Source: Parcubacteria group bacterium Gr01-1014_33 (GTDB taxonomy: Bacteria; Patescibacteriota; Minisyncoccia; Sungbacterales; HO2-52-23). From it: 38,262 bases of DNA. Below, in pieces: positions 1 to 37,775 of the stretch (positions within the stretch are counted from its first letter, which is position 1; each line of letters starts with the position of its first letter). Below the pieces are notes generated by a model. That model ran no database searches. It worked only from the letters and a program-made list of their open reading frames with translations, and had not been told where the DNA came from. Position numbers and translations under genes: made by a program. The DNA lies in NCBI GenBank assembly GCA_007376125.1, contig VMFQ01000007.1, forward strand, positions 1 through 38,262. Direction: 5' to 3'.

Positions 1-291
1 GCAATTTATATCGGGGAAACTGGAGAAGTTTCTCCAGATATGTTTAATATGTTGATACGCGAGTATCTTCAGGTACGCAGTTCTCCTCATTTCGAACAAA
101 GTTCTCCTCACTTCGCACAAAGAGCGAGGATGCGGCTTCTTGAGCGGCTTGTATCCGATCTCGTGTGGGTAGTGTGGAATTATACGCGACCAAAAAATCC
201 GAAACTTCAGGATCTACGACCCGTGGAGCAAGCGACAAATGTTGCGGCGCGCTTCAATGGCGTAAGGCAACTCTTGACACGCTATCAATAA
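1..291 (+). CDS. 3' part of a hypothetical protein (runs off the window start)
   Basis: Frame 1 is open from base 1 to TAA at 289-291; no family recognised. Confidence 0.55.
   Translation, partial: AIYIGETGEVSPDMFNMLIREYLQVRSSPHFEQSSPHFAQRARMRLLERLVSDLVWVVWNYTRPKNPKLQDLRPVEQATNVAARFNGVRQLLTRYQ
79..120 (+). repeat. 21-bp tandem duplication inside the CDS (SSPHFEQ/SSPHFAQ)
   Basis: agttctcctcatttcgaacaa then agttctcctcacttcgcacaa. Confidence 0.85.
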
Positions 292-789
292 GAGATGTTT
301 TTTTAGTTCTTTTTGATTATAGCGATTATGCGGATGTGTGAACGTCCGCTTTTTTCTTTTATACATCCATGATACTCTTGAACGTATGGAAACACCTCCC
401 AAGATAACAGAAATCAAAGAATGGATTCTGTCCCATAATCCATTAGGTTTGGCGCATGGCGGAACACTTTCGCTCAAAGATATTGATCCCAATCCATGGT
501 CGGGGCATTTTAATTATCTCATTGCGGCAGGCACAAAAAAGTGTGTGCTCCGGTTTCAAGGTCCGGAGTGGGGAACGCCTGCGGGGGTAGGAGACGAATA
601 CGAAAATTTAAAAGCGGTGCAAAAACACCGTGTGGGACCGAAGGTATTTTATTATGCCGATGATTTTTTCGGAGAGCCAATGATGTGCGAGGAGTATTTG
701 GACGGGAAACCGCTCAATCGGTTTTCCGCGCATACACAGCTCCGATCGTTTCCCGCGATTGGCCGCATGATCGCAAAAATAAATACAAT

Positions 790-964
790 GAGATGGTTAC
801 AAAACTATTTCTACTGCAATGCCGTATTTTCGGTTGCAACTTCGTCAGACTTCGCAAAAAGACTTATCACCGCAGCGCTACTGCGCTTCAAGTCTTTTTG
901 CTCGTCTTTCTTGTCTCGCTCAAAAATACGGCATTTCGTAACGAAATAGTTTTGTAACCATCTC
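790..964. mobile_element. 175-bp MITE-like element, family A
   Basis: Perfect 22-bp TIR gagatggttacaaaactatttc / gaaatagttttgtaaccatctc; 3-bp TSD AAT. Confidence 0.92.
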
Positions 965-1058
965 AATTCCATTTCCTGAAGAGCTCTTGTCGCTCCGCGA
1001 ACGCGCCATGAATTTTCTCCGGCACAAAGACACCTGGCGGATTCGCACGGAAGCTATT

Positions 1059-1217
1059 AGACCTACTGCGTAATAATCTTTCTACTGCAATTTCCAGATT
1101 TCGGCTACGACTTTGCAAAAATTATTCAACATATACGCGGTATATGCTTCATAATTTTTGCTGCGTCTCGCTTGAAATCTGAAAATTTCGCTACGAAAAT
1201 TATCACGCAGTAGGTCT
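1059..1217. mobile_element. 159-bp MITE-like element, family B
   Basis: TIR agacctactgcgtaataat / attatcacgcagtaggtct; TSD ATT; related copy at 37615-37775. Confidence 0.92.
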
Positions 1218-1743
1218 ATTTTACTTGACCGCGAGTTGAGGGATACGGGACACGAAATAAAAAAACTTATTCCGCCGGCGGAAGAAATGCTCCATGCCGG
1301 AGAAGAAGCGCTTGCCCGCGTCTTAAAAACTCATCCGCCCGCGTTTATTTTTGAAAGCGCGCATGTGGGGCATTGCATGCGGCTTCGCCGAAGGGGATTT
1401 CGTTTCGTAAATTGGGAGAAAGTGAGTTTCGGGGATCCCAGTTTTACCCTTGCCGTGTTTCTCTCATCAATTTCCGAGCGAGATGATTTTTTAAGCGTAA
1501 AGGAGATAATGGTAAAAAAATATCTCCAGATCAATCCGGTTCCGGAATGTACCGCGCTTCTTGATTTTCGCTTGAAAGAGCGCGCGGTATCCAATCTGCT
1601 CTGGGTGCCGTGGGCGCATGTAAAGCGGCGCGAGGCGGGCGAGGCAGGAAGCGCGCCGGATTTGGGCAGGCGGTATGAGAATGTAAAAGCAATACTAAAA
1701 GAATTCCAAGGAAAGCGGAAATGATCTATAGTGTACGGGTGTT

Positions 1744-1887
1744 TTCATTGCAGAGAAACGGTTAGTGATCGCTACCGACGTTGTCGTGGCGCGCAATCCC
1801 GCGGCGTAGTATCTCACGAGATTGCTTCCTAAAAACATTCCAATATTCTCAAGAATGTTGGAATGTTTTTGCGGTGCCTGCAGTGAC
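1744..1887. repeat. Degenerate GTCATTGC...GCAATGAC REP-like element with a nested palindrome
   Basis: ttcattgc..gcaatccc..gagattgcttc..gcagtgac; same layout as 30274-30478 and 37106-37215. Confidence 0.5.
1831..1870. repeat. AACATTCC palindrome, copy 1
   Basis: aaaaacattccaatattctcaagaatgttggaatgttttt; reverse-complement copy at 15456-15489. Confidence 0.9.
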
Positions 1888-1952
1888 AGACGAACGGGGG
1901 CGCACACGCATAGGTCCGGATAATCTTTTTCATTAGTGTGCCCCGTATATAA

Positions 1953-1985
1953 ACCCCGTATAGCTCTCAAGAGATTATACGGGGT
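1953..1985. repeat. ACCCCG...CGGGGT palindromic element
   Basis: accccgtatagctctcaagagattatacggggt. Confidence 0.7.
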
Positions 1986-2054
1986 CAACTTCGGCGATCT
2001 TCATTTTGTCCCGCCCTTTTGGTAGCACTCAAAAGGGCGGGACAGCCGAAGTTG
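1986..2054. repeat. CAACTTCGGC-TIR element, copy 1
   Basis: caacttcggc...gccgaagttg with internal tgtcccgccctttt/aaaagggcgggaca hairpin; same TIR at 15576-15695. Confidence 0.75.
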
Positions 2055-2077
2055 TATTACGGATGTGCATAACCCTC

Positions 2078-2106
2078 TTGACTTTTACTGTTCTATTTGA
2101 TATATT
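2078..2106 (+). promoter_or_regulatory. Sigma70-type promoter
   Basis: TTGACT-17-TATATT with TGn extension. Confidence 0.55.
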
Positions 2107-2161
2107 GAGCAAAGTGAGTGTTTTTATCCCGGCTTGCCGGGAGAAAACTCCAATTTGTCCT

Positions 2162-2193
2162 GCATAAAATCCCGCGTACGCGGGGTTTTGTGT
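2162..2193 (+). terminator. Intrinsic terminator-like hairpin
   Basis: aaaatcccgcg-ta-cgcggggttttgtgt. Confidence 0.5.
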
Positions 2194-2255
2194 TAAAGGG
2201 CTTTGTCTAAAATTTGGAGCACGGGGTGCGAACAAATTTTAGCGACAAAACCTTT

Positions 2256-2360
2256 ACCCCCATCTATTTCTACTACTGATTCGAGAGATTTGAGGAGAGG
2301 GTATTGCAGTATGACCCTTACCATACACACAAGGATTCATTAGTAGAAATAGGTGGGGGT
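2256..2360. mobile_element. ACCCCCA...TGGGGGT TIR element
   Basis: acccccatctatttctacta / tagtagaaataggtgggggt. Confidence 0.75.
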
Positions 2361-2419
2361 GCTCAATGGTGTAGTAAATTTTACTGCGCCATAGGCTTGT
2401 AAATTTTAACACCATTGGC

Positions 2420-3568
2420 ATGAAAAAAGCGCTTCTTCTTTATGGCGCAACCGACATAGGCCCTTCCCATTTTTCGGGCGATTTGCTGTGGAGGACTGGA
2501 TTTAAAGCGCCTGATCCGTTTTTCCTCATAGAAATTGAGGGGAAGGCGTTTCTCTTTGCTTCGCCCCTTGAACTTGAACGTGCAGAGAAAGAGGCGCGCG
2601 CGGATACCATACTCTCGCTCCACGACTACACCAAAAGAACTCAAAGAAAAACAGAGATAGAGGGAATACTTCTTTTTCTCAAAGAGCGGGCAATAGAAGC
2701 CGTTGTGGCATCCTCGGACATTCCCTACATAATAGGAAGGGCAATCGCGCGTGCGTTTTCTCTTGAAATAAAAAATGCTCCTTTCTATCCTCTTCGCGCG
2801 CTCAAAACCGATGCGGAGATTGACGAGATTCGTAACGCTCAAGCCGCGGTTGAACGCGCTCTGGAAAATGCGCTAGATTTTCTAAAAGGGTGCGTCATCC
2901 GCGAAGGGAAAATCTATGCGGGAGAAACAGCAATAACCGCAGAAGCGCTTCGTGGCCGGATTGACTCATCGCTTTATAGCGGGGGGTATCTTGGGATAGA
3001 CACGATTGTCACTCCGGGCATTCAAGCCGCAGATCCGCATGCACTCGGAACAGGACTCCTTATTCCGTACGCGCCGATCGTGATAGACATTTTTCCCCTT
3101 TCCATCAAGACGCATTATTATTCGGATCAGACACGGACAATTTTTAAAGGCGAACCGGCAGAGGCGTATAAAAAGATGTATCGGGCGGTGCTTGAGGCGC
3201 AGCTTTTCGCGATACAGAAAATAAAAAGCGGCGTAGACGGAAGCGTCGTGTACGATGAGGTGATACGCTATTTTGAGTCAAACGGCTTTAAGACCGATTT
3301 TTCGCGGCGTCCTATGGAAGGATTTTTCCACGGACTGGGGCACGGCGTGGGGATTGATATACACGAGTTTCCCCGTTTGGGACATACGCCGGAAATTCTT
3401 GAGGAACGAAACGTGGTAACGGTTGAGCCCGGACTTTATTACACGCATGCCGAGAACGGGATTTTGCCCGGCGGCATACGAATTGAGGATATTGTCGTGG
3501 TGGGCAAAAATTCGTGTGAAAATCTTACGGCGTTTCCAAAGCGATTGGAAGATATAATTATTCCATAG
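2420..3568 (+). CDS. Xaa-Pro aminopeptidase, peptidase M24B
   Basis: HGLGHGVGIDIHE, VTVEPGLY and GGIRIEDIV motifs. Confidence 0.95.
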   Translation: MKKALLLYGATDIGPSHFSGDLLWRTGFKAPDPFFLIEIEGKAFLFASPLELERAEKEARADTILSLHDYTKRTQRKTEIEGILLFLKERAIEAVVASSDIPYIIGRAIARAFSLEIKNAPFYPLRALKTDAEIDEIRNAQAAVERALENALDFLKGCVIREGKIYAGETAITAEALRGRIDSSLYSGGYLGIDTIVTPGIQAADPHALGTGLLIPYAPIVIDIFPLSIKTHYYSDQTRTIFKGEPAEAYKKMYRAVLEAQLFAIQKIKSGVDGSVVYDEVIRYFESNGFKTDFSRRPMEGFFHGLGHGVGIDIHEFPRLGHTPEILEERNVVTVEPGLYYTHAENGILPGGIRIEDIVVVGKNSCENLTAFPKRLEDIIIP

Positions 3569-5952: not shown

Positions 5953-7335
5953 ATGGCAAATGAAATAAAAAACGGGAATGGGGCTTCCGGAAGTAGCCAC
6001 AATGGGCAGAACGGCCAAAATGGAAATAACGGGGCAATACAAAACGGCGAAAAACCACGATTAAAGTTTCTTTTTATTTCGTGGGAGTCGCTTTCCGGGG
6101 ATGTGGCGTGGCGGCTTACACAGGAAGGCCATGAAGTGAAATATTGGAGCAAGGACTCGGATGATGCGGATGTCTATATTGGTTTTGTGGAGAAAGTGGA
6201 GCGATGGGAAGACCATAAGGATTGGGCTGATGTTATCGTGTTTGACGACACCGGGTTCGGGAAGATTGCCGATGCTTTGCGCCGATCAGGAAAATTAGTC
6301 GTTGGCGGGAACGAATATACCGATCGCCTGGAAGAAGACCGTGAATTTGGGCAAGCGGAAATGAAACGAGTGGGGATGACAGTACTGCCGCACTGGGATT
6401 TTAGCGATTTTGAGGAAGCAATCCGCTTTATCAAGGAAAATCCGGGCCGGTATGTCTTCAAGCCCTCGGGGAGCGTGCTCACCGATCAGAAAGGCATCCT
6501 TTTTATCGGTCAGGAAGACTCGGGCGCGGATCTTTTAGAGGTGCTTGAGCACAACAAAAACACATGGGCTAAAAAAATCAAGAGATTTCAACTGCAGAAA
6601 TTTGCGAACGGCGTGGAGGTTGCGGTGGGCGCGTTTTTTAACGGCAAGGATTTTATACGGCCGCTGTGTGTTAACTTTGAACATAAGAAACTTTTTCCCG
6701 GTGAGATCGGCCCCTACACCGGAGAGATGGGAACGCTGGTGTATTGGGGCGAGCCCAACAAAATTTTCAGCATGACGCTTGAGAAACTGAAACCCGCACT
6801 TGCAGAATCGGGTTATATTGGGTACGTGGATATCAACTGCGTGGCGAATAACAACGGAATTTACCCATTGGAGATTACCGCACGTCTCGGCTACCCGATT
6901 ATCTATATACAACTGGAAGGAATTTTGACGACTGCGGGAGAATGGTTGTCGAAACTGGCGCGCGGAGAATCGTTTGAATTACGCGTTAAGAAGGGATTCC
7001 AAGTCGGGGTGGTAGTGGCGGTGCCGCCGTTTCCGTATCATGACAGACGCGAGGCCGACATCTACCACGATTTGTCAATCGTGTTTCGCAAACCAAATTT
7101 GGAGGGGGTGCATTTGGGAAAAGTGAAGATTGTGGAGGGTGAGTGGCATCCTGCGGGCGAGTCCGGATATGCGCTTGTGGTTACCGGTTCGGGCACCACA
7201 GTCGCGGAAGCGCGAAAAATGGCGTATAATAGGATTGATAATATTATTTTACAAAACAAGTTCTATCGCACCGATATCGGGATTCGCTGGAACACGGATA
7301 GCGATAAACTTCAATCGTGGGGATACCTTTACTAG
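5953..7335 (+). CDS. PurD-like (GAR synthetase-type) ATP-grasp ligase with an N/G/Q-rich N-terminal tail
   Basis: YVFKPSG, NFEHKKLFPGEIGPYTGEMG, LEITARLGYP, FYRTDIG; the ORF extension from 5920 lies inside a repeat. Confidence 0.85.
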   Translation: MANEIKNGNGASGSSHNGQNGQNGNNGAIQNGEKPRLKFLFISWESLSGDVAWRLTQEGHEVKYWSKDSDDADVYIGFVEKVERWEDHKDWADVIVFDDTGFGKIADALRRSGKLVVGGNEYTDRLEEDREFGQAEMKRVGMTVLPHWDFSDFEEAIRFIKENPGRYVFKPSGSVLTDQKGILFIGQEDSGADLLEVLEHNKNTWAKKIKRFQLQKFANGVEVAVGAFFNGKDFIRPLCVNFEHKKLFPGEIGPYTGEMGTLVYWGEPNKIFSMTLEKLKPALAESGYIGYVDINCVANNNGIYPLEITARLGYPIIYIQLEGILTTAGEWLSKLARGESFELRVKKGFQVGVVVAVPPFPYHDRREADIYHDLSIVFRKPNLEGVHLGKVKIVEGEWHPAGESGYALVVTGSGTTVAEARKMAYNRIDNIILQNKFYRTDIGIRWNTDSDKLQSWGYLY

Positions 7336-11151: not shown

Positions 11152-11218
11152 GAGACCATTACAAAACTCGGTATTAATGGCTCATATAAGCCAATTTTAA
11201 GAGTTTTGTAACCATCTC
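11152..11218. mobile_element. Short 67-bp family A element
   Basis: Right end gttttgtaaccatctc identical to the 790-964 element; TSD TAT. Confidence 0.8.
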
Positions 11219-12207: not shown

Positions 12208-12280
12208 CTCCTTTGTTTTGCGCATGTAAAAGAGCTCTTTCTTTTTACCGAAAGATACTCTATAATCTGTAGTATGTCAA
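12208..12280 (-). promoter_or_regulatory. Promoter, boxA and SD of the HTH gene, overlapping the secA promoter
   Basis: TTGACA (12280-12275)-17-TATCTT; GCTCTTTTACA (12235-12225); AGGAG (12212-12208). Confidence 0.6.
12261..12266 (+). promoter_or_regulatory. -10 box of a probably leaderless secA mRNA
   Basis: TATAAT 7 nt before the ATG; no SD. Confidence 0.55.
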
Positions 12281-15153
12281 TCTTCACAAAAATCTTGGGG
12301 GACGCAAACGAGCGGTATATAAAATCGCTTCTTCCGATCGTCCAGAAAGTGAACGAGTATGAAAAAGAGTACGAAACACTCTCGGATGACGGGCTAAAAA
12401 ATTGTACCGTGGAATTTAAAGCGCGATTGGAAAAAGGCGATACGCTTGACGATATTTTGCCGGAAGCGTTTGCGGTGGTGCGCGAAGCGTCAAAGCGGGC
12501 AATCGGAAAGCGCCATTTTGACGTGCAGTTAATCGGTGGAATCGTGCTCCATCAAGGCAAAATCGCCGAGATGAAAACCGGCGAGGGAAAAACGCTCGTG
12601 GCAACCCTTCCATTATACTTGCACTCTTTGGCAGGGATTGGGGCGCATTTGGTTACCCCGAACGATTATCTTTCGCGAATCGGCGCCGGATGGATGGGGC
12701 CGGTGTATCACGCGCTCGGAGTTTCTGTCGGAGTGGTTTGCCACGATATATCGGGAATATACGATCCGGAATATAAAGATTCCCAGCCACACGGAGACGA
12801 ACGGCTCGCGCATTTTAGGCCCTGTACACGGCACGAGGCATACGCGGCAGACATTACATACGGCACGAATAACGAATTCGGGTTTGACTATCTTCGCGAC
12901 AATCTTGAATATCTTCCCGCGGAACTTCGCCAGTCCCGATTGCACCGCGATCGAGGATTTCCCGATTTTTCTTCTCACCATGTTGACAATGAAATCGAGG
13001 ATCCTCGACAACATCGGGACTCAATTCCGGAGGAGTCGGGACGCGTGCATTACTACGCGCTTGTGGATGAGGTTGACTCAATTTTAATTGACGAGGCGCG
13101 CACACCTTTGATAATCTCGGCGCCGGATACGGAATCCGCCGATCTCTATCAGGTGTTTTCTCGGATTACGCCTCAACTCAAAGAAAACGAGGATTATAAT
13201 GTGGATGAAAAAATGCGCGCGGTTGCGATGGCGGAAAAGGGAATTGATAAAGTGGAGCACATATTAAACATTGGGAATATCTACGAAGAAAAGGGAATAC
13301 GATTTGTGCATCACCTTGAGCAGGCGCTTCGCGCAAAAGCGCTTTTTCATAAAGACAAAGATTATGTGGTAAAAGACGGCGAGGTAATAATAGTGGATGA
13401 ATTTACCGGACGCCTCATGCCCGGTAGGCGTTGGAGCGAGGGATTACACCAAGCGGTTGAGGCGAAAGAAGGCGTGAAAGTCCAGCAGGAATCGCGGACG
13501 CTTGCCACCATCACGTTTCAAAATTATTTCCGCATGTATAAACGGCTCGCGGGCATGACTGGGACCGCGCAAACAAGCGCGGAAGAATTCCATAAAGTAT
13601 ATGCGATTGACGTGATTACGATTCCCACGCACCGTCCCATGATACGGCGCGATGAGCCGGATCTTGTCTTTCGCACCGAGAACGGAAAATTTCAAGCGGT
13701 TATCCGCGAAGTAAAAGAAAAATATGAGAAAGGCCAGCCAGTATTGATCGGCACGGTGTCAATTGAAAAAAACGAGCGGCTTTCCAAAATGCTTCAAGTG
13801 GAAGGAGTTCCCCATGAGCTATTAAACGCGAAAAACCACGAGCGCGAGGCGTTGATTATTGCCGAGGCCGGGAAAAAAGGCGCGGTAACGGTTGCGACCA
13901 ATATGGCGGGGCGAGGAGTGGATATTATTCTGGGAGGAGCGCTTCCTTCGGAAATCAAAAATTCGGAGGAATATAAAGAAGGAGAGGGGGAATACAAAGA
14001 AGTGCGCGCCGCGGGCGGACTCCACGTCATTGGCACCGAGCGCCATGAAGCCCGCCGGATTGATAATCAGTTGCGTGGACGCTCCGGCAGGCAAGGAGAT
14101 CCAGGATCTTCCCGATTTTTTGTGTCTCTGGAGGATGACGTAATGCGTATTTTCGGATCGGAACGGATCAAGAATATGATGGAATCTTTGGGCATACCCG
14201 AAGATCAGCCGATTGAAGCAAAAATGGTATCACGTGCGATTGAGGCGGCGCAGGCAAAAATTGAGGGGTTTCATTTTGACACGCGGAAGCATGTCTTGGA
14301 ATACGACGATGTGCTTAATAAGCAGAGGGATGCGATATATCGTTTAAGAAGAGAAATACTTTTTTCCGAGGCGGCTAACTTAGTTTCCATTGAGGAAACT
14401 AAGTTCGGCGCGGAGGAACCAGAGAACAAATTCTCTCCGAGCGAAGCGGAGAAGACACCTTTGAAGGAAAGAATTTTCGAAATGCTTGAAGAAGAAATTT
14501 CTCGGATTGTTGAATTTCACACCCAAGAAAGTTCGGAAGAAAATTGGAATCTTGAAGAGATTTCTGAAGCAATAAAAGCAATAGCGGGCGGCTTGGATGA
14601 TCTTCATGCGGACCTTCGCGCGATAGCTGCGGAAAAAATTGATACGGAAGAGAAACGATCAAAAATTATTGAATATATTGTTAAAGCGCTTCGTGTCAAA
14701 TATGATACCCGCGAAAAAGAAATAGGGGAGGATGGCATGCGGAATATTGAGCGCGTGGTAATGTTGCGCTCAATTGATATGCTTTGGATGGAACATTTGG
14801 ATCAAATGGAGCATTTGCGCGATTCGGTTCGCCTTCGCGCCTACGGCCAGCGCGATCCGTTGGTGGAATATAAAAACGAGGGCTCACGCATGTTCCGCGA
14901 ATTACAAACCGCGATTCGTGCGCAAATTGTAAATACGATATTTAAAGTGGGCGGAACCCCGAGGCAAGAACAGGCAGTGAGAATTGAAGGAAAACGCCCT
15001 CATATATTGCCCGAGCAAAATCAAGGGCTTACATTACATGTTCAGCCGGAAGCCGATAGTGGGAAGCCGGTAACTATGAAATCCGAGCCAAATAGAAATG
15101 ATCCCTGCTTTTGCGGCTCGGGGAAAAAGTATAAGAAGTGCCATGGAAAATAA
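12274..15153 (+). CDS. secA: Preprotein translocase subunit SecA
   Basis: MKTGEGKT, DEVDSILIDEARTPLIIS, TNMAGRG, QLRGRSGRQGD and a C-terminal SEC-C motif. Confidence 0.99.
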   Translation: MSIFTKILGDANERYIKSLLPIVQKVNEYEKEYETLSDDGLKNCTVEFKARLEKGDTLDDILPEAFAVVREASKRAIGKRHFDVQLIGGIVLHQGKIAEMKTGEGKTLVATLPLYLHSLAGIGAHLVTPNDYLSRIGAGWMGPVYHALGVSVGVVCHDISGIYDPEYKDSQPHGDERLAHFRPCTRHEAYAADITYGTNNEFGFDYLRDNLEYLPAELRQSRLHRDRGFPDFSSHHVDNEIEDPRQHRDSIPEESGRVHYYALVDEVDSILIDEARTPLIISAPDTESADLYQVFSRITPQLKENEDYNVDEKMRAVAMAEKGIDKVEHILNIGNIYEEKGIRFVHHLEQALRAKALFHKDKDYVVKDGEVIIVDEFTGRLMPGRRWSEGLHQAVEAKEGVKVQQESRTLATITFQNYFRMYKRLAGMTGTAQTSAEEFHKVYAIDVITIPTHRPMIRRDEPDLVFRTENGKFQAVIREVKEKYEKGQPVLIGTVSIEKNERLSKMLQVEGVPHELLNAKNHEREALIIAEAGKKGAVTVATNMAGRGVDIILGGALPSEIKNSEEYKEGEGEYKEVRAAGGLHVIGTERHEARRIDNQLRGRSGRQGDPGSSRFFVSLEDDVMRIFGSERIKNMMESLGIPEDQPIEAKMVSRAIEAAQAKIEGFHFDTRKHVLEYDDVLNKQRDAIYRLRREILFSEAANLVSIEETKFGAEEPENKFSPSEAEKTPLKERIFEMLEEEISRIVEFHTQESSEENWNLEEISEAIKAIAGGLDDLHADLRAIAAEKIDTEEKRSKIIEYIVKALRVKYDTREKEIGEDGMRNIERVVMLRSIDMLWMEHLDQMEHLRDSVRLRAYGQRDPLVEYKNEGSRMFRELQTAIRAQIVNTIFKVGGTPRQEQAVRIEGKRPHILPEQNQGLTLHVQPEADSGKPVTMKSEPNRNDPCFCGSGKKYKKCHGK
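12934..13041. mobile_element. 108-bp in-frame TCCCGA...TCGGGA palindromic insertion in secA
   Basis: Removal restores LRQ-RVHYYALVDEVD; terminal inverted repeat; nested IR ending at 13020. Confidence 0.85.
14377..14405. repeat. AAACTAAGTT-family palindrome in frame inside secA
   Basis: aacttagtttcc-attga-ggaaactaagtt. Confidence 0.8.
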
Positions 15154-36444: not shown

Positions 36445-36623
36445 GAAACTGTCTGAAAAGCGCTTTTCGATGGAAAAATAGCCAGATTTTCAAGGAAAAA
36501 TCATTGATGTATATTGATGTATGACGAAGGAATATCAACACAAAGATATTTCAAGGAGTACATCAATGATGTGTACGCGCATATGGCTCGTTTTTGCCGA
36601 AAGGGCGCTTTTTAGACAGTTTC
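36445..36623. mobile_element. 179-bp MITE-like element
   Basis: TIR gaaactgtct(g/a)aaaagcgc; flanks TTA/TTG. Confidence 0.82.
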
Positions 36624-36635
36624 TTGCAGCCATTT

Positions 36636-37604
36636 ATGACCAAAGAGAAATTTATCCAAACCATAACCAAATGGTATTCCTATAATAAAGAATCCTTTCA
36701 TTTTCCTTGGCGCAATACCCGCGATCCGTACCAGATTTTTGTTTCCGAAATAATGCTCCAGCAAACGCAGATTGTACGGGTGATTCCAAAATACGAGGAG
36801 TGGCTCAAGGAATTTCCCACGCTTGAATCGCTTGCCAAAGCGCCGTTTCCAAAAATTCTCAAAGTATGGCAGGGGATGGGATATAACCGCCGGGCGCGGT
36901 ATCTAAAGGACACCGCAGAAATTGTTGTCCGAAAGTATAACGGACAAATTCCTCGCGATCCGCAAACGCTTGAAAGATTTCCGGGTATCGGACATTATAC
37001 GGCGCGCGCGATTACATGTTTTGCGTATGGGAGATGCGAGCCGTTTTTGGAAACAAATATCCGGCGCGGGCTTATCCATTTTTTCGGAAACTCGCCTCAT
37101 TTGTCTGTCATTGCTCACCCCGTTAGAATTCGAAATTCTAACGGGGTGAGCAAAGCGAAACAATCTCGACACGTCGGGATTGCCGCATCCCGACAAGTCG
37201 GGACTCGCAATGACATGCGGCAAGAGAAGATTTCTGACGGAATACTCCTCGCGATTCTTTCTCGTCTTGAGCCGAAAACAAAAAAACGCGAGTGGTACTA
37301 TGCGTTAATGGACTATGGACGCGAAGTGCTGGGGAAAATGTCCGATAACCCCAATCGTCGCGCAAAACACTATCGGACACAATCAAAGTTTCTGGGCTCA
37401 CGCCGCTATGTCCGCGCAAAGATTGTTTTGTATCTTGTGTCAAAGCGAAATGGGGTAAATAGAAAGGAGTTGCTTCATCTCCTCAAGAAGGATTTACACA
37501 CGAAAGATTTTCTTACTCCTCATGTATTTGATTGGGTTCTTAATGATCTTAGCCGAGACAAGTTAATTACTCGCAAAGCAAACAAGTGGATAATTCTTTC
37601 GTGA
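36636..37604 (+). CDS. mutY: HhH-GPD A/G-specific adenine glycosylase (short, no Fe-S motif) with an in-frame insertion
   Basis: PWR..DPY...VSEIMLQQTQ, WQGMGYNRRA, PGIGHYTA, ETNIRR. Confidence 0.88.
   Translation: MTKEKFIQTITKWYSYNKESFHFPWRNTRDPYQIFVSEIMLQQTQIVRVIPKYEEWLKEFPTLESLAKAPFPKILKVWQGMGYNRRARYLKDTAEIVVRKYNGQIPRDPQTLERFPGIGHYTARAITCFAYGRCEPFLETNIRRGLIHFFGNSPHLSVIAHPVRIRNSNGVSKAKQSRHVGIAASRQVGTRNDMRQEKISDGILLAILSRLEPKTKKREWYYALMDYGREVLGKMSDNPNRRAKHYRTQSKFLGSRRYVRAKIVLYLVSKRNGVNRKELLHLLKKDLHTKDFLTPHVFDWVLNDLSRDKLITRKANKWIILS
37106..37215. mobile_element. Translated nested palindromic element inside mutY
   Basis: tgtcattgc...gcaatgaca host with inserts at 37117-37147 and 37188-37203. 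Confidence 0.88.
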
Positions 37605-37614
37605 GTCGTGTTAT

Positions 37615-37775
37615 AGACCTACTGCACAATAATTTTCGTGACGAAATTTCAGAATTTTGAGACAAAATCGCTGAATAAATTTTGCGGCTTATCTGGAGGA
37701 TACGCCAAAAAATTTTGAGGCGATTTTGGCCGAAATTCTGAAGTTGCAGTAGAAGGATTATTGTGCAGTAGGTCT
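37615..37775. mobile_element. 161-bp family B element, inverted relative to 1059-1217
   Basis: TIR agacctactgcacaataat; TSD TAT. Confidence 0.92.

Follow-up and report, generated by a model that had tools for sequence, protein, structure and literature searches.

Two multicopy hairpin elements, here called E1 and E2, interrupt a gene of the choline-kinase/APH fold at positions 386 to 1724 of the window, the 38,262-nucleotide stretch of DNA that was analysed as a whole. We consider it very probable that both are non-autonomous MITEs of the IS5 family that were inserted in trans and left an accessory, predicted pseudokinase gene dead. The host genome, in which the window forms contig C81, measures 1.05 Mb (86 contigs, 96.7% complete), and the source runs are groundwater metagenomes from one study. 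Its size, together with the named records that carry E1-family copies or homologs of the gene, points to a Patescibacteria (CPR) genome. The locus is made up of five parts:

386 to 789, forward strand: 5′ piece of the choline-kinase/APH-fold gene, residues 1-134, ending with the left AAT duplication; matched by profile A1 (E 2.8e-59)
790 to 964, no strand assigned: E1, a 175-bp non-coding MITE forming a rod hairpin; AAT is duplicated; the genome has 3 sister copies
965 to 1058, forward strand: middle gene piece of about 30 codons between E1 and E2, including the right AAT and the left ATT duplications
1059 to 1217, no strand assigned: E2, a 159-bp non-coding MITE forming a rod hairpin; ATT is duplicated; the gene's frame meets four stops in it; the census gives 25 more full-length copies
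1218 to 1724, forward strand: 3′ gene piece, residues about 165-332, with altered catalytic loop and metal-binding motif

The AAT duplication of E1 lies at 787-789 and 965-967, and the ATT duplication of E2 at 1056-1058 and 1218-1220. When E1, E2 and one copy of each duplication were removed in silico from 386-1724, 999 nt remained, encoding 332 aa and a stop codon with 0 internal stops. The joined protein aligned without gaps to P0001, an intact homolog of 327 aa, with 55% identity over 325 aa, and 48/50 homologs had neither a gap nor an insert at the E1 or E2 junction. This gap-free alignment sets the length of the duplication at 3 bp; a TA-dinucleotide duplication (IS630-like), considered for E2, was ruled out because it would add one residue relative to those 48 homologs. 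E1 folded at -75.9 kcal/mol (z -12.6) and E2 at -61.5 kcal/mol (z -11.6), and for each element 0/200 shuffles folded as well. An earlier note, written from the letters of this DNA, had described near-complete rods at 790-964 (AAT) and 1059-1217 (ATT), with which our coordinates, duplications and folding z values agree, and had claimed that their exact removal restores one 332-aa ORF, which was borne out by the stop-free reading and the gap-free alignment to P0001.

As it stands, the 5′ piece runs on into E1 and ends at a stop at 947-949, giving a product of 187 aa. E1 with its duplication adds 178 nt and thus shifts the frame, and all three forward frames of E1 contain a stop. E2 with its duplication adds 162 nt, which keeps the frame, and brings in four in-frame stops (TAA, TAA, TAA and TGA). 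Stop-codon reassignment was therefore ruled out: with E2 stops of two kinds and the frameshift in E1, reassignment of a single stop cannot give read-through.

A census of the genome with a two-end motif identified 4 E1 and 26 E2 full-length copies; it counted copies with both ends, and blastn shows further diverged or contig-end pieces outside this count. A perfect 3-bp duplication was present in 21/30 of the E1/E2 copies, and in 16 of those it was AAT or ATT. The terminal inverted repeats of E1 are perfect over 22-23 nt, and the arms of E2 are 75% complementary over 79 nt. The window E1 differed from each of its three sister copies at 4/175 nt (97.7% identity), and the nearest sister copy of E2 was 94.6% identical. 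Both elements have the properties of MITEs, being short (175 and 159 bp; under about 500 bp), without a transposase ORF (stops interrupt all three forward frames of both E1 and E2), multicopy and with ends shared with insertion sequences (IS). The two families share interior sequence (71% over 42 nt), and E1-family copies were also found in Falkowbacteria, Parcubacteria, Gribaldobacteria and Saccharibacteria records. At C64:3312-3716, an E2 and an E1 copy lie about 25-26 bp apart, and the same arrangement was seen in DNA runs X1 and X3. Two related elements lie elsewhere in the window:

11152 to 11218, no strand assigned: small MITE of 67 bp with one E1-type end and one that is identical to the right end of this genome's two-ORF IS5-family element
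37615 to 37775, no strand assigned: further E2-family copy, intergenic, 10 nt after mutY; duplication TAT

With one end of each type, the 67-bp MITE links E1 to the genome's own two-ORF IS5-family element.

IS5-family insertion sequences share their terminal repeats and A/T-rich duplications of 3 bp with E1 and E2, but E1 and E2 have no transposase gene. The partner of E2 is a 1,059-bp IS5-family element that extends over two contigs (C75:35289-36004 and C25:11771-12134, with a 21-nt contig overlap) and has ATA on both sides. Its transposase carries HTH_Tnp_4 and DDE_Tnp_4 domains, with transpos_IS5_4 as the best NCBIfam model, and its left end agreed with the window E2 at 14/18 and with two E2 sister copies at 16-17/18. 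Among 19 related metagenome loci examined (27 returned), 7 had the same ends at 1,056-1,063 bp, and 6 of these 7 had a perfect 3-bp duplication. The transposase of the C75/C25 element has Ala at the third catalytic Glu position, where Glu was found in 9/15 relatives checked and the other 6 gave no motif match; judged by this residue, the copy is probably inactive. Its insertion point precedes an ATPase-like ORF by a few bases.

The partner of E1 came from a paired-end scan of GTDB genomes with the E1 end motif, which gave 118 stretches, 80 of them fetched. In one of these, L049 (Kuenenbacteria), two E1-type ends surround 908 bp with DUF4096 and DDE ORFs; the end was identical to that of E1 at 17/17, and the best NCBIfam model was transpos_IS5_3. 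As the proteins had been scanned piece by piece, the scores for transpos_IS5_3 and transpos_IS5_4 both fell short of the curated cut-off. No relatives of the genome's own C75/C25 transposase were found in the 80 E1-motif loci. In the host genome itself, the two-ORF IS5-family element is represented at contig breaks (C45, C25, C77, C10 and C4) by four right ends and a single left end, which agree with E1 at 14/17. This element is a multicopy IS that was lost from the assembly and is known here from those ends. A search of the genome for DUF4096 did not find it, probably because the two-ORF element is unassembled. We take the E2-type partner to be ISL2-like and the E1-type partner to belong to the IS427/IS1031-like subgroup of the IS5 family.

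E1 and E2 are part of a larger population of repeats, as the genome has 483 hairpin loci (arms of at least 11 nt), 238 of them multicopy and from many families. Several further hairpin families have TAA/TTA 3-bp duplications, and a cluster of other short multicopy hairpins lies directly 3′ of the gene at window positions 1760-2400, where 1831-1870 is very deep in run X1. Two Y1_Tnp genes (C2:16656-16880 and C22:6876-7100), of the IS200/REP-associated tyrosine transposase type, are candidate movers of other hairpin families. E1 and E2 are not assigned to a named prokaryotic MITE family such as those treated in the sections of PMC10969869 used here (Correia elements, QMITE, MITEAba12), and differ from these in that their interiors are nearly fully self-complementary. 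They resemble the Rickettsia palindromic elements (RPEs) as hairpin repeats of about 150 bp able to sit within genes, but the RPEs found in genes are in frame and coding, according to the same sections of PMC10969869, whereas E1 and E2 break the frame. The 52 aa encoded by E1 had no match to the RPE model. In-frame positions do occur among the hairpins of this genome, with 10/238 multicopy loci lying in frame within called ORFs. No publication on the E1 or E2 families in Patescibacteria was found in the literature covered, mostly other than subscription papers, and the families may be listed elsewhere, for example in ISfinder.

Since restoration of the frame is exact and the gene has no other lesion, the rods could instead be intron-like, lost from the transcript or bypassed during translation so that the full 332-aa protein is made, an alternative that the earlier note had also raised. 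Our analysis makes this very improbable, and the strongest argument comes from where the other copies lie. If the elements were spliced or skipped, genes should tolerate them. After removal of one duplication, 2/30 E1/E2 copies break a coding frame, defined as one that extends for 30 codons or more to either side, and these are the two in the window gene; for the other copies the count is 0/28, the opposite of what is expected for a spliced element. In a background with the same margin, 1114/2000 random A/T-triplet sites fell in a coding frame (56%, the figure used; a looser margin gave 69%), so that the probability of 0 of 28 is about 1e-10. Gene calls for this comparison came from a simple hexamer model (887 genes, 77% coding). 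Eight E1/E2 copies overlap the end of a called ORF. The sole E2-family copy within a called ORF, at C77:12408-12566, is open in frame close to the 5′ end of a pilin-like ORF, the real start of which is uncertain; if this copy is counted as in-gene, the probability of 3 or fewer of 30 is 2e-7. Furthermore, among the 98 hairpins genome-wide with a duplication of at least 3 bp, E1 and E2 were the only ones to break a gene. C24:9620-9789, considered as a second broken gene, was ruled out, being a chance hairpin that occurs once and spans two overlapping genes.

In translational bypassing elements of the gene 60 or byp type, the take-off and landing codons match, and a stop or unread codon directly follows the take-off codon. 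E2 has the duplicated ATT in frame on either flank, so that take-off and landing codons would match, but such a match is expected 1/3 of the time for any 3-bp duplication, and the first stop comes 5 codons later. At E1 the flanking codons differ (ACA vs TCA), and the frame is open for 53 codons further. No group I or II intron or other Rfam family was found at gathering score in window positions 1-2500, and no bulge-helix-bulge was found at the junctions in predicted folds with flanks. A tRNA-splicing endonuclease (PF01974) had 0 matches in the genome, 96.7% complete, with a positive control in 4 archaea. The intron-like or bypassed element of the earlier note thus found no backing in the copy positions, the endonuclease and Rfam searches or the junctions present in DNA contigs. 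If the elements were spliced or skipped after all, they would represent a new kind of bacterial intron. Taken more widely, a MITE-derived intron or double on/off switch, with the rods precisely removed from the transcript or reversibly from the DNA and the 332-aa protein still made, appears improbable to us.

E1 and E2 could also be MITEs that excise precisely from DNA, with a minority of cells keeping an intact gene and the insertions acting as a reversible off-switch. Both duplications are perfect and are brought together by the rods, the flanks are undecayed, and scarless IS excision that restores a gene is documented for ISAba13 in itrA in the part of PMC9038732 used here, which also cites insertion and excision of IS1301, an IS5-family member, in siaA. 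The perfect duplications of E1 and E2 would likewise permit scarless excision. As the extracts from PMC4561436 and PMC12730594 have it, Tourist MITEs of PIF/Harbinger generally excise precisely, and PIF/Harbinger has been placed in a tree with IS5. However, IS1301 and ISAba13 are, in the same part of PMC9038732, single autonomous IS with observed revertants, and reversion is termed low-frequency there, whereas E1 and E2 are two non-autonomous elements that would require two independent excisions. The empty junctions that the earlier note had proposed to look for did not appear in the DNA: no joint skipping E1 or E2 at the locus was present in the contigs of 4 DNA runs, and as contigs drop rare variants, this limits common empty alleles only. 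A 964-to-1058 joint in the run contigs was rejected as a deletion here, as it comes from another locus with adjacent E1 and E2 (25 intervening letters on C64). Run contigs compared with C42:4000-16095 likewise gave no joint skipping the E1 copy on C42, and had repeat-to-repeat joints only. At C42:6090-6477, the sequence of run X1 departs from that of the assembly in a pair of tight substitution clusters (6378-6383 and 6465-6477), partly shared by X2.

Products of the filled state are also on record. Two assemblies encode the 187-aa truncated product, with a single amino-acid difference between them that falls within E1, and in a near-identical 3′ fragment of 145 aa two residues are not those of the window. 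These records suggest that the filled state has persisted across strains, and we regard a reversible switch as quite unlikely. No pre-insertion allele was found in close relatives; the nearest intact homolog is 57% identical, too distant for dN/dS. That the insertions are an assembly artefact, with repeats collapsed into the gene, is scarcely credible. The summed depth of the elements is about 1000 vs about 10 for the gene, and the assembly does break at repeats, but independent contigs bridge the gene and the element ends in X2 (935-1087) and X4 (901-1029), as do, with borderline overlaps of about 30 nt, X1 contigs at 159-818 and 1188-1362. The same truncated protein is encoded in the second assembly, and misassembly does not make perfect target duplications, so the artefact is already largely refuted.

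The locus is thus most likely an ordinary MITE-disrupted pseudogene. IS5-family DDE transposases would recognise the shared ends in trans, and each element would enter an A/T-rich triplet, with 3 bp duplicated. The first insertion would inactivate a weakly selected gene, and the dead gene may then have served as neutral ground for the second. A kilobase of non-coding DNA is expected to contain about 0.12 E1/E2 copies, or about 0.95 multicopy hairpins when all families are counted, so the second hit needs no special cause. E2 was probably inserted before E1, an order that the identities to the nearest sisters (94.6% vs 97.7%) weakly favour. Clean restoration of the flanks is what any insertion with a target duplication would give, and it also reflects that the hits are recent. 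Inactivation of unneeded genes by MITE insertion is described in the sections of PMC10969869 used here.

The distribution of the gene agrees with weak selection on it. A 50-sequence profile found it in 1/35 other genomes of the family, and the 3′ piece as query found it in 4/40 wider relatives; given this rarity, the gene is likely dispensable. A distant paralog (27%) at the start of C7 runs off the contig. In the flanks of E1 and E2, the gene departs from 4/77 conserved columns, with 0-13 departures in intact homologs. This lack of excess decay fits a recent insertion, but continued function too. Two MITE hits in a dispensable gene had been the simplest reading of the earlier note, and it gains from the multicopy families, the IS5-family ends and the 1/35 occurrence.

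The interrupted gene belongs to a family with unusual motifs. Its intact homologs, some of them from records named Niyogibacteria and Sungiibacteriota, are 322-365 aa long, and 5/6 had PF01636 or PF01633 above the cut-off, mostly PF01636. A structure model of P0001 (pLDDT 93) gave Foldseek matches to YtaA, choline kinases and APHs, the best being YtaA (2q83; E 3.7e-10, TM 0.67, 16% identity); a PDB sequence search gave weak matches only. In the joined protein, the motifs ESAHVGH and NWE occupy residues 210-216 and 229-231. Among 56 close intact homologs, the catalytic Asp column was Ser in 56/56, the Asn column was His in 56/56 and the metal-binding Asp column was Asn in 54/56, so that the catalytic residues of an active CAK/APH kinase are replaced in these close homologs, those of HxDxxxxN in all and that of DxE in nearly all. 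The distant homolog set mostly keeps the catalytic residues (D 42, N 62, D 62). Within the P0001-P0059 family, His is invariant at 41, 213 and 216, and Arg at 282 and 286. In a sister clade, Gly occupies the catalytic Asp position, and Asp lies one position earlier.

The earlier note had left the choice between a pseudokinase and a decaying gene, and here its two halves part: pseudokinase gains support, and decay was ruled out as the source of the motifs, which are common to 54-56/56 intact close homologs and hence predate the insertions. Within the choline-kinase/APH fold, these homologs form a conserved subfamily of predicted pseudokinases, whose site could be a remodelled active site. In the kinase group of the spore pseudokinases YtaA, CotS and YsxE, loss of the catalytic Asp is taken as predicting a pseudokinase in the portion of PMC2860764 used here. 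The subfamily has likewise lost the equivalents of YtaA D239, N244 and D257. It differs from the proteins treated in that portion of PMC2860764 in its host group, which is non-sporulating rather than sporulating, and in having near-invariant Ser, His and Asn rather than freely varying residues at these positions. With its D>S, N>H and D>N changes and its three invariant His, this predicted subfamily is a better lead than the MITEs.

The tie between two unnamed MITE families and their IS5-family partners is of modest importance. As the genome illustrates, hundreds of hairpin repeats can be present in 1 Mb of Patescibacteria DNA, and accessory genes can fall victim to them. Two other genes in the window contain additional segments. 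mutY (36594-37604, forward strand) has an in-frame insertion at 37060-37240 that is made of multicopy hairpin repeats and is RPE-like, and secA (12274-15153, forward strand) has an apparent extra in-frame segment at 12900-13060, which is single-copy in the genome by blastn.
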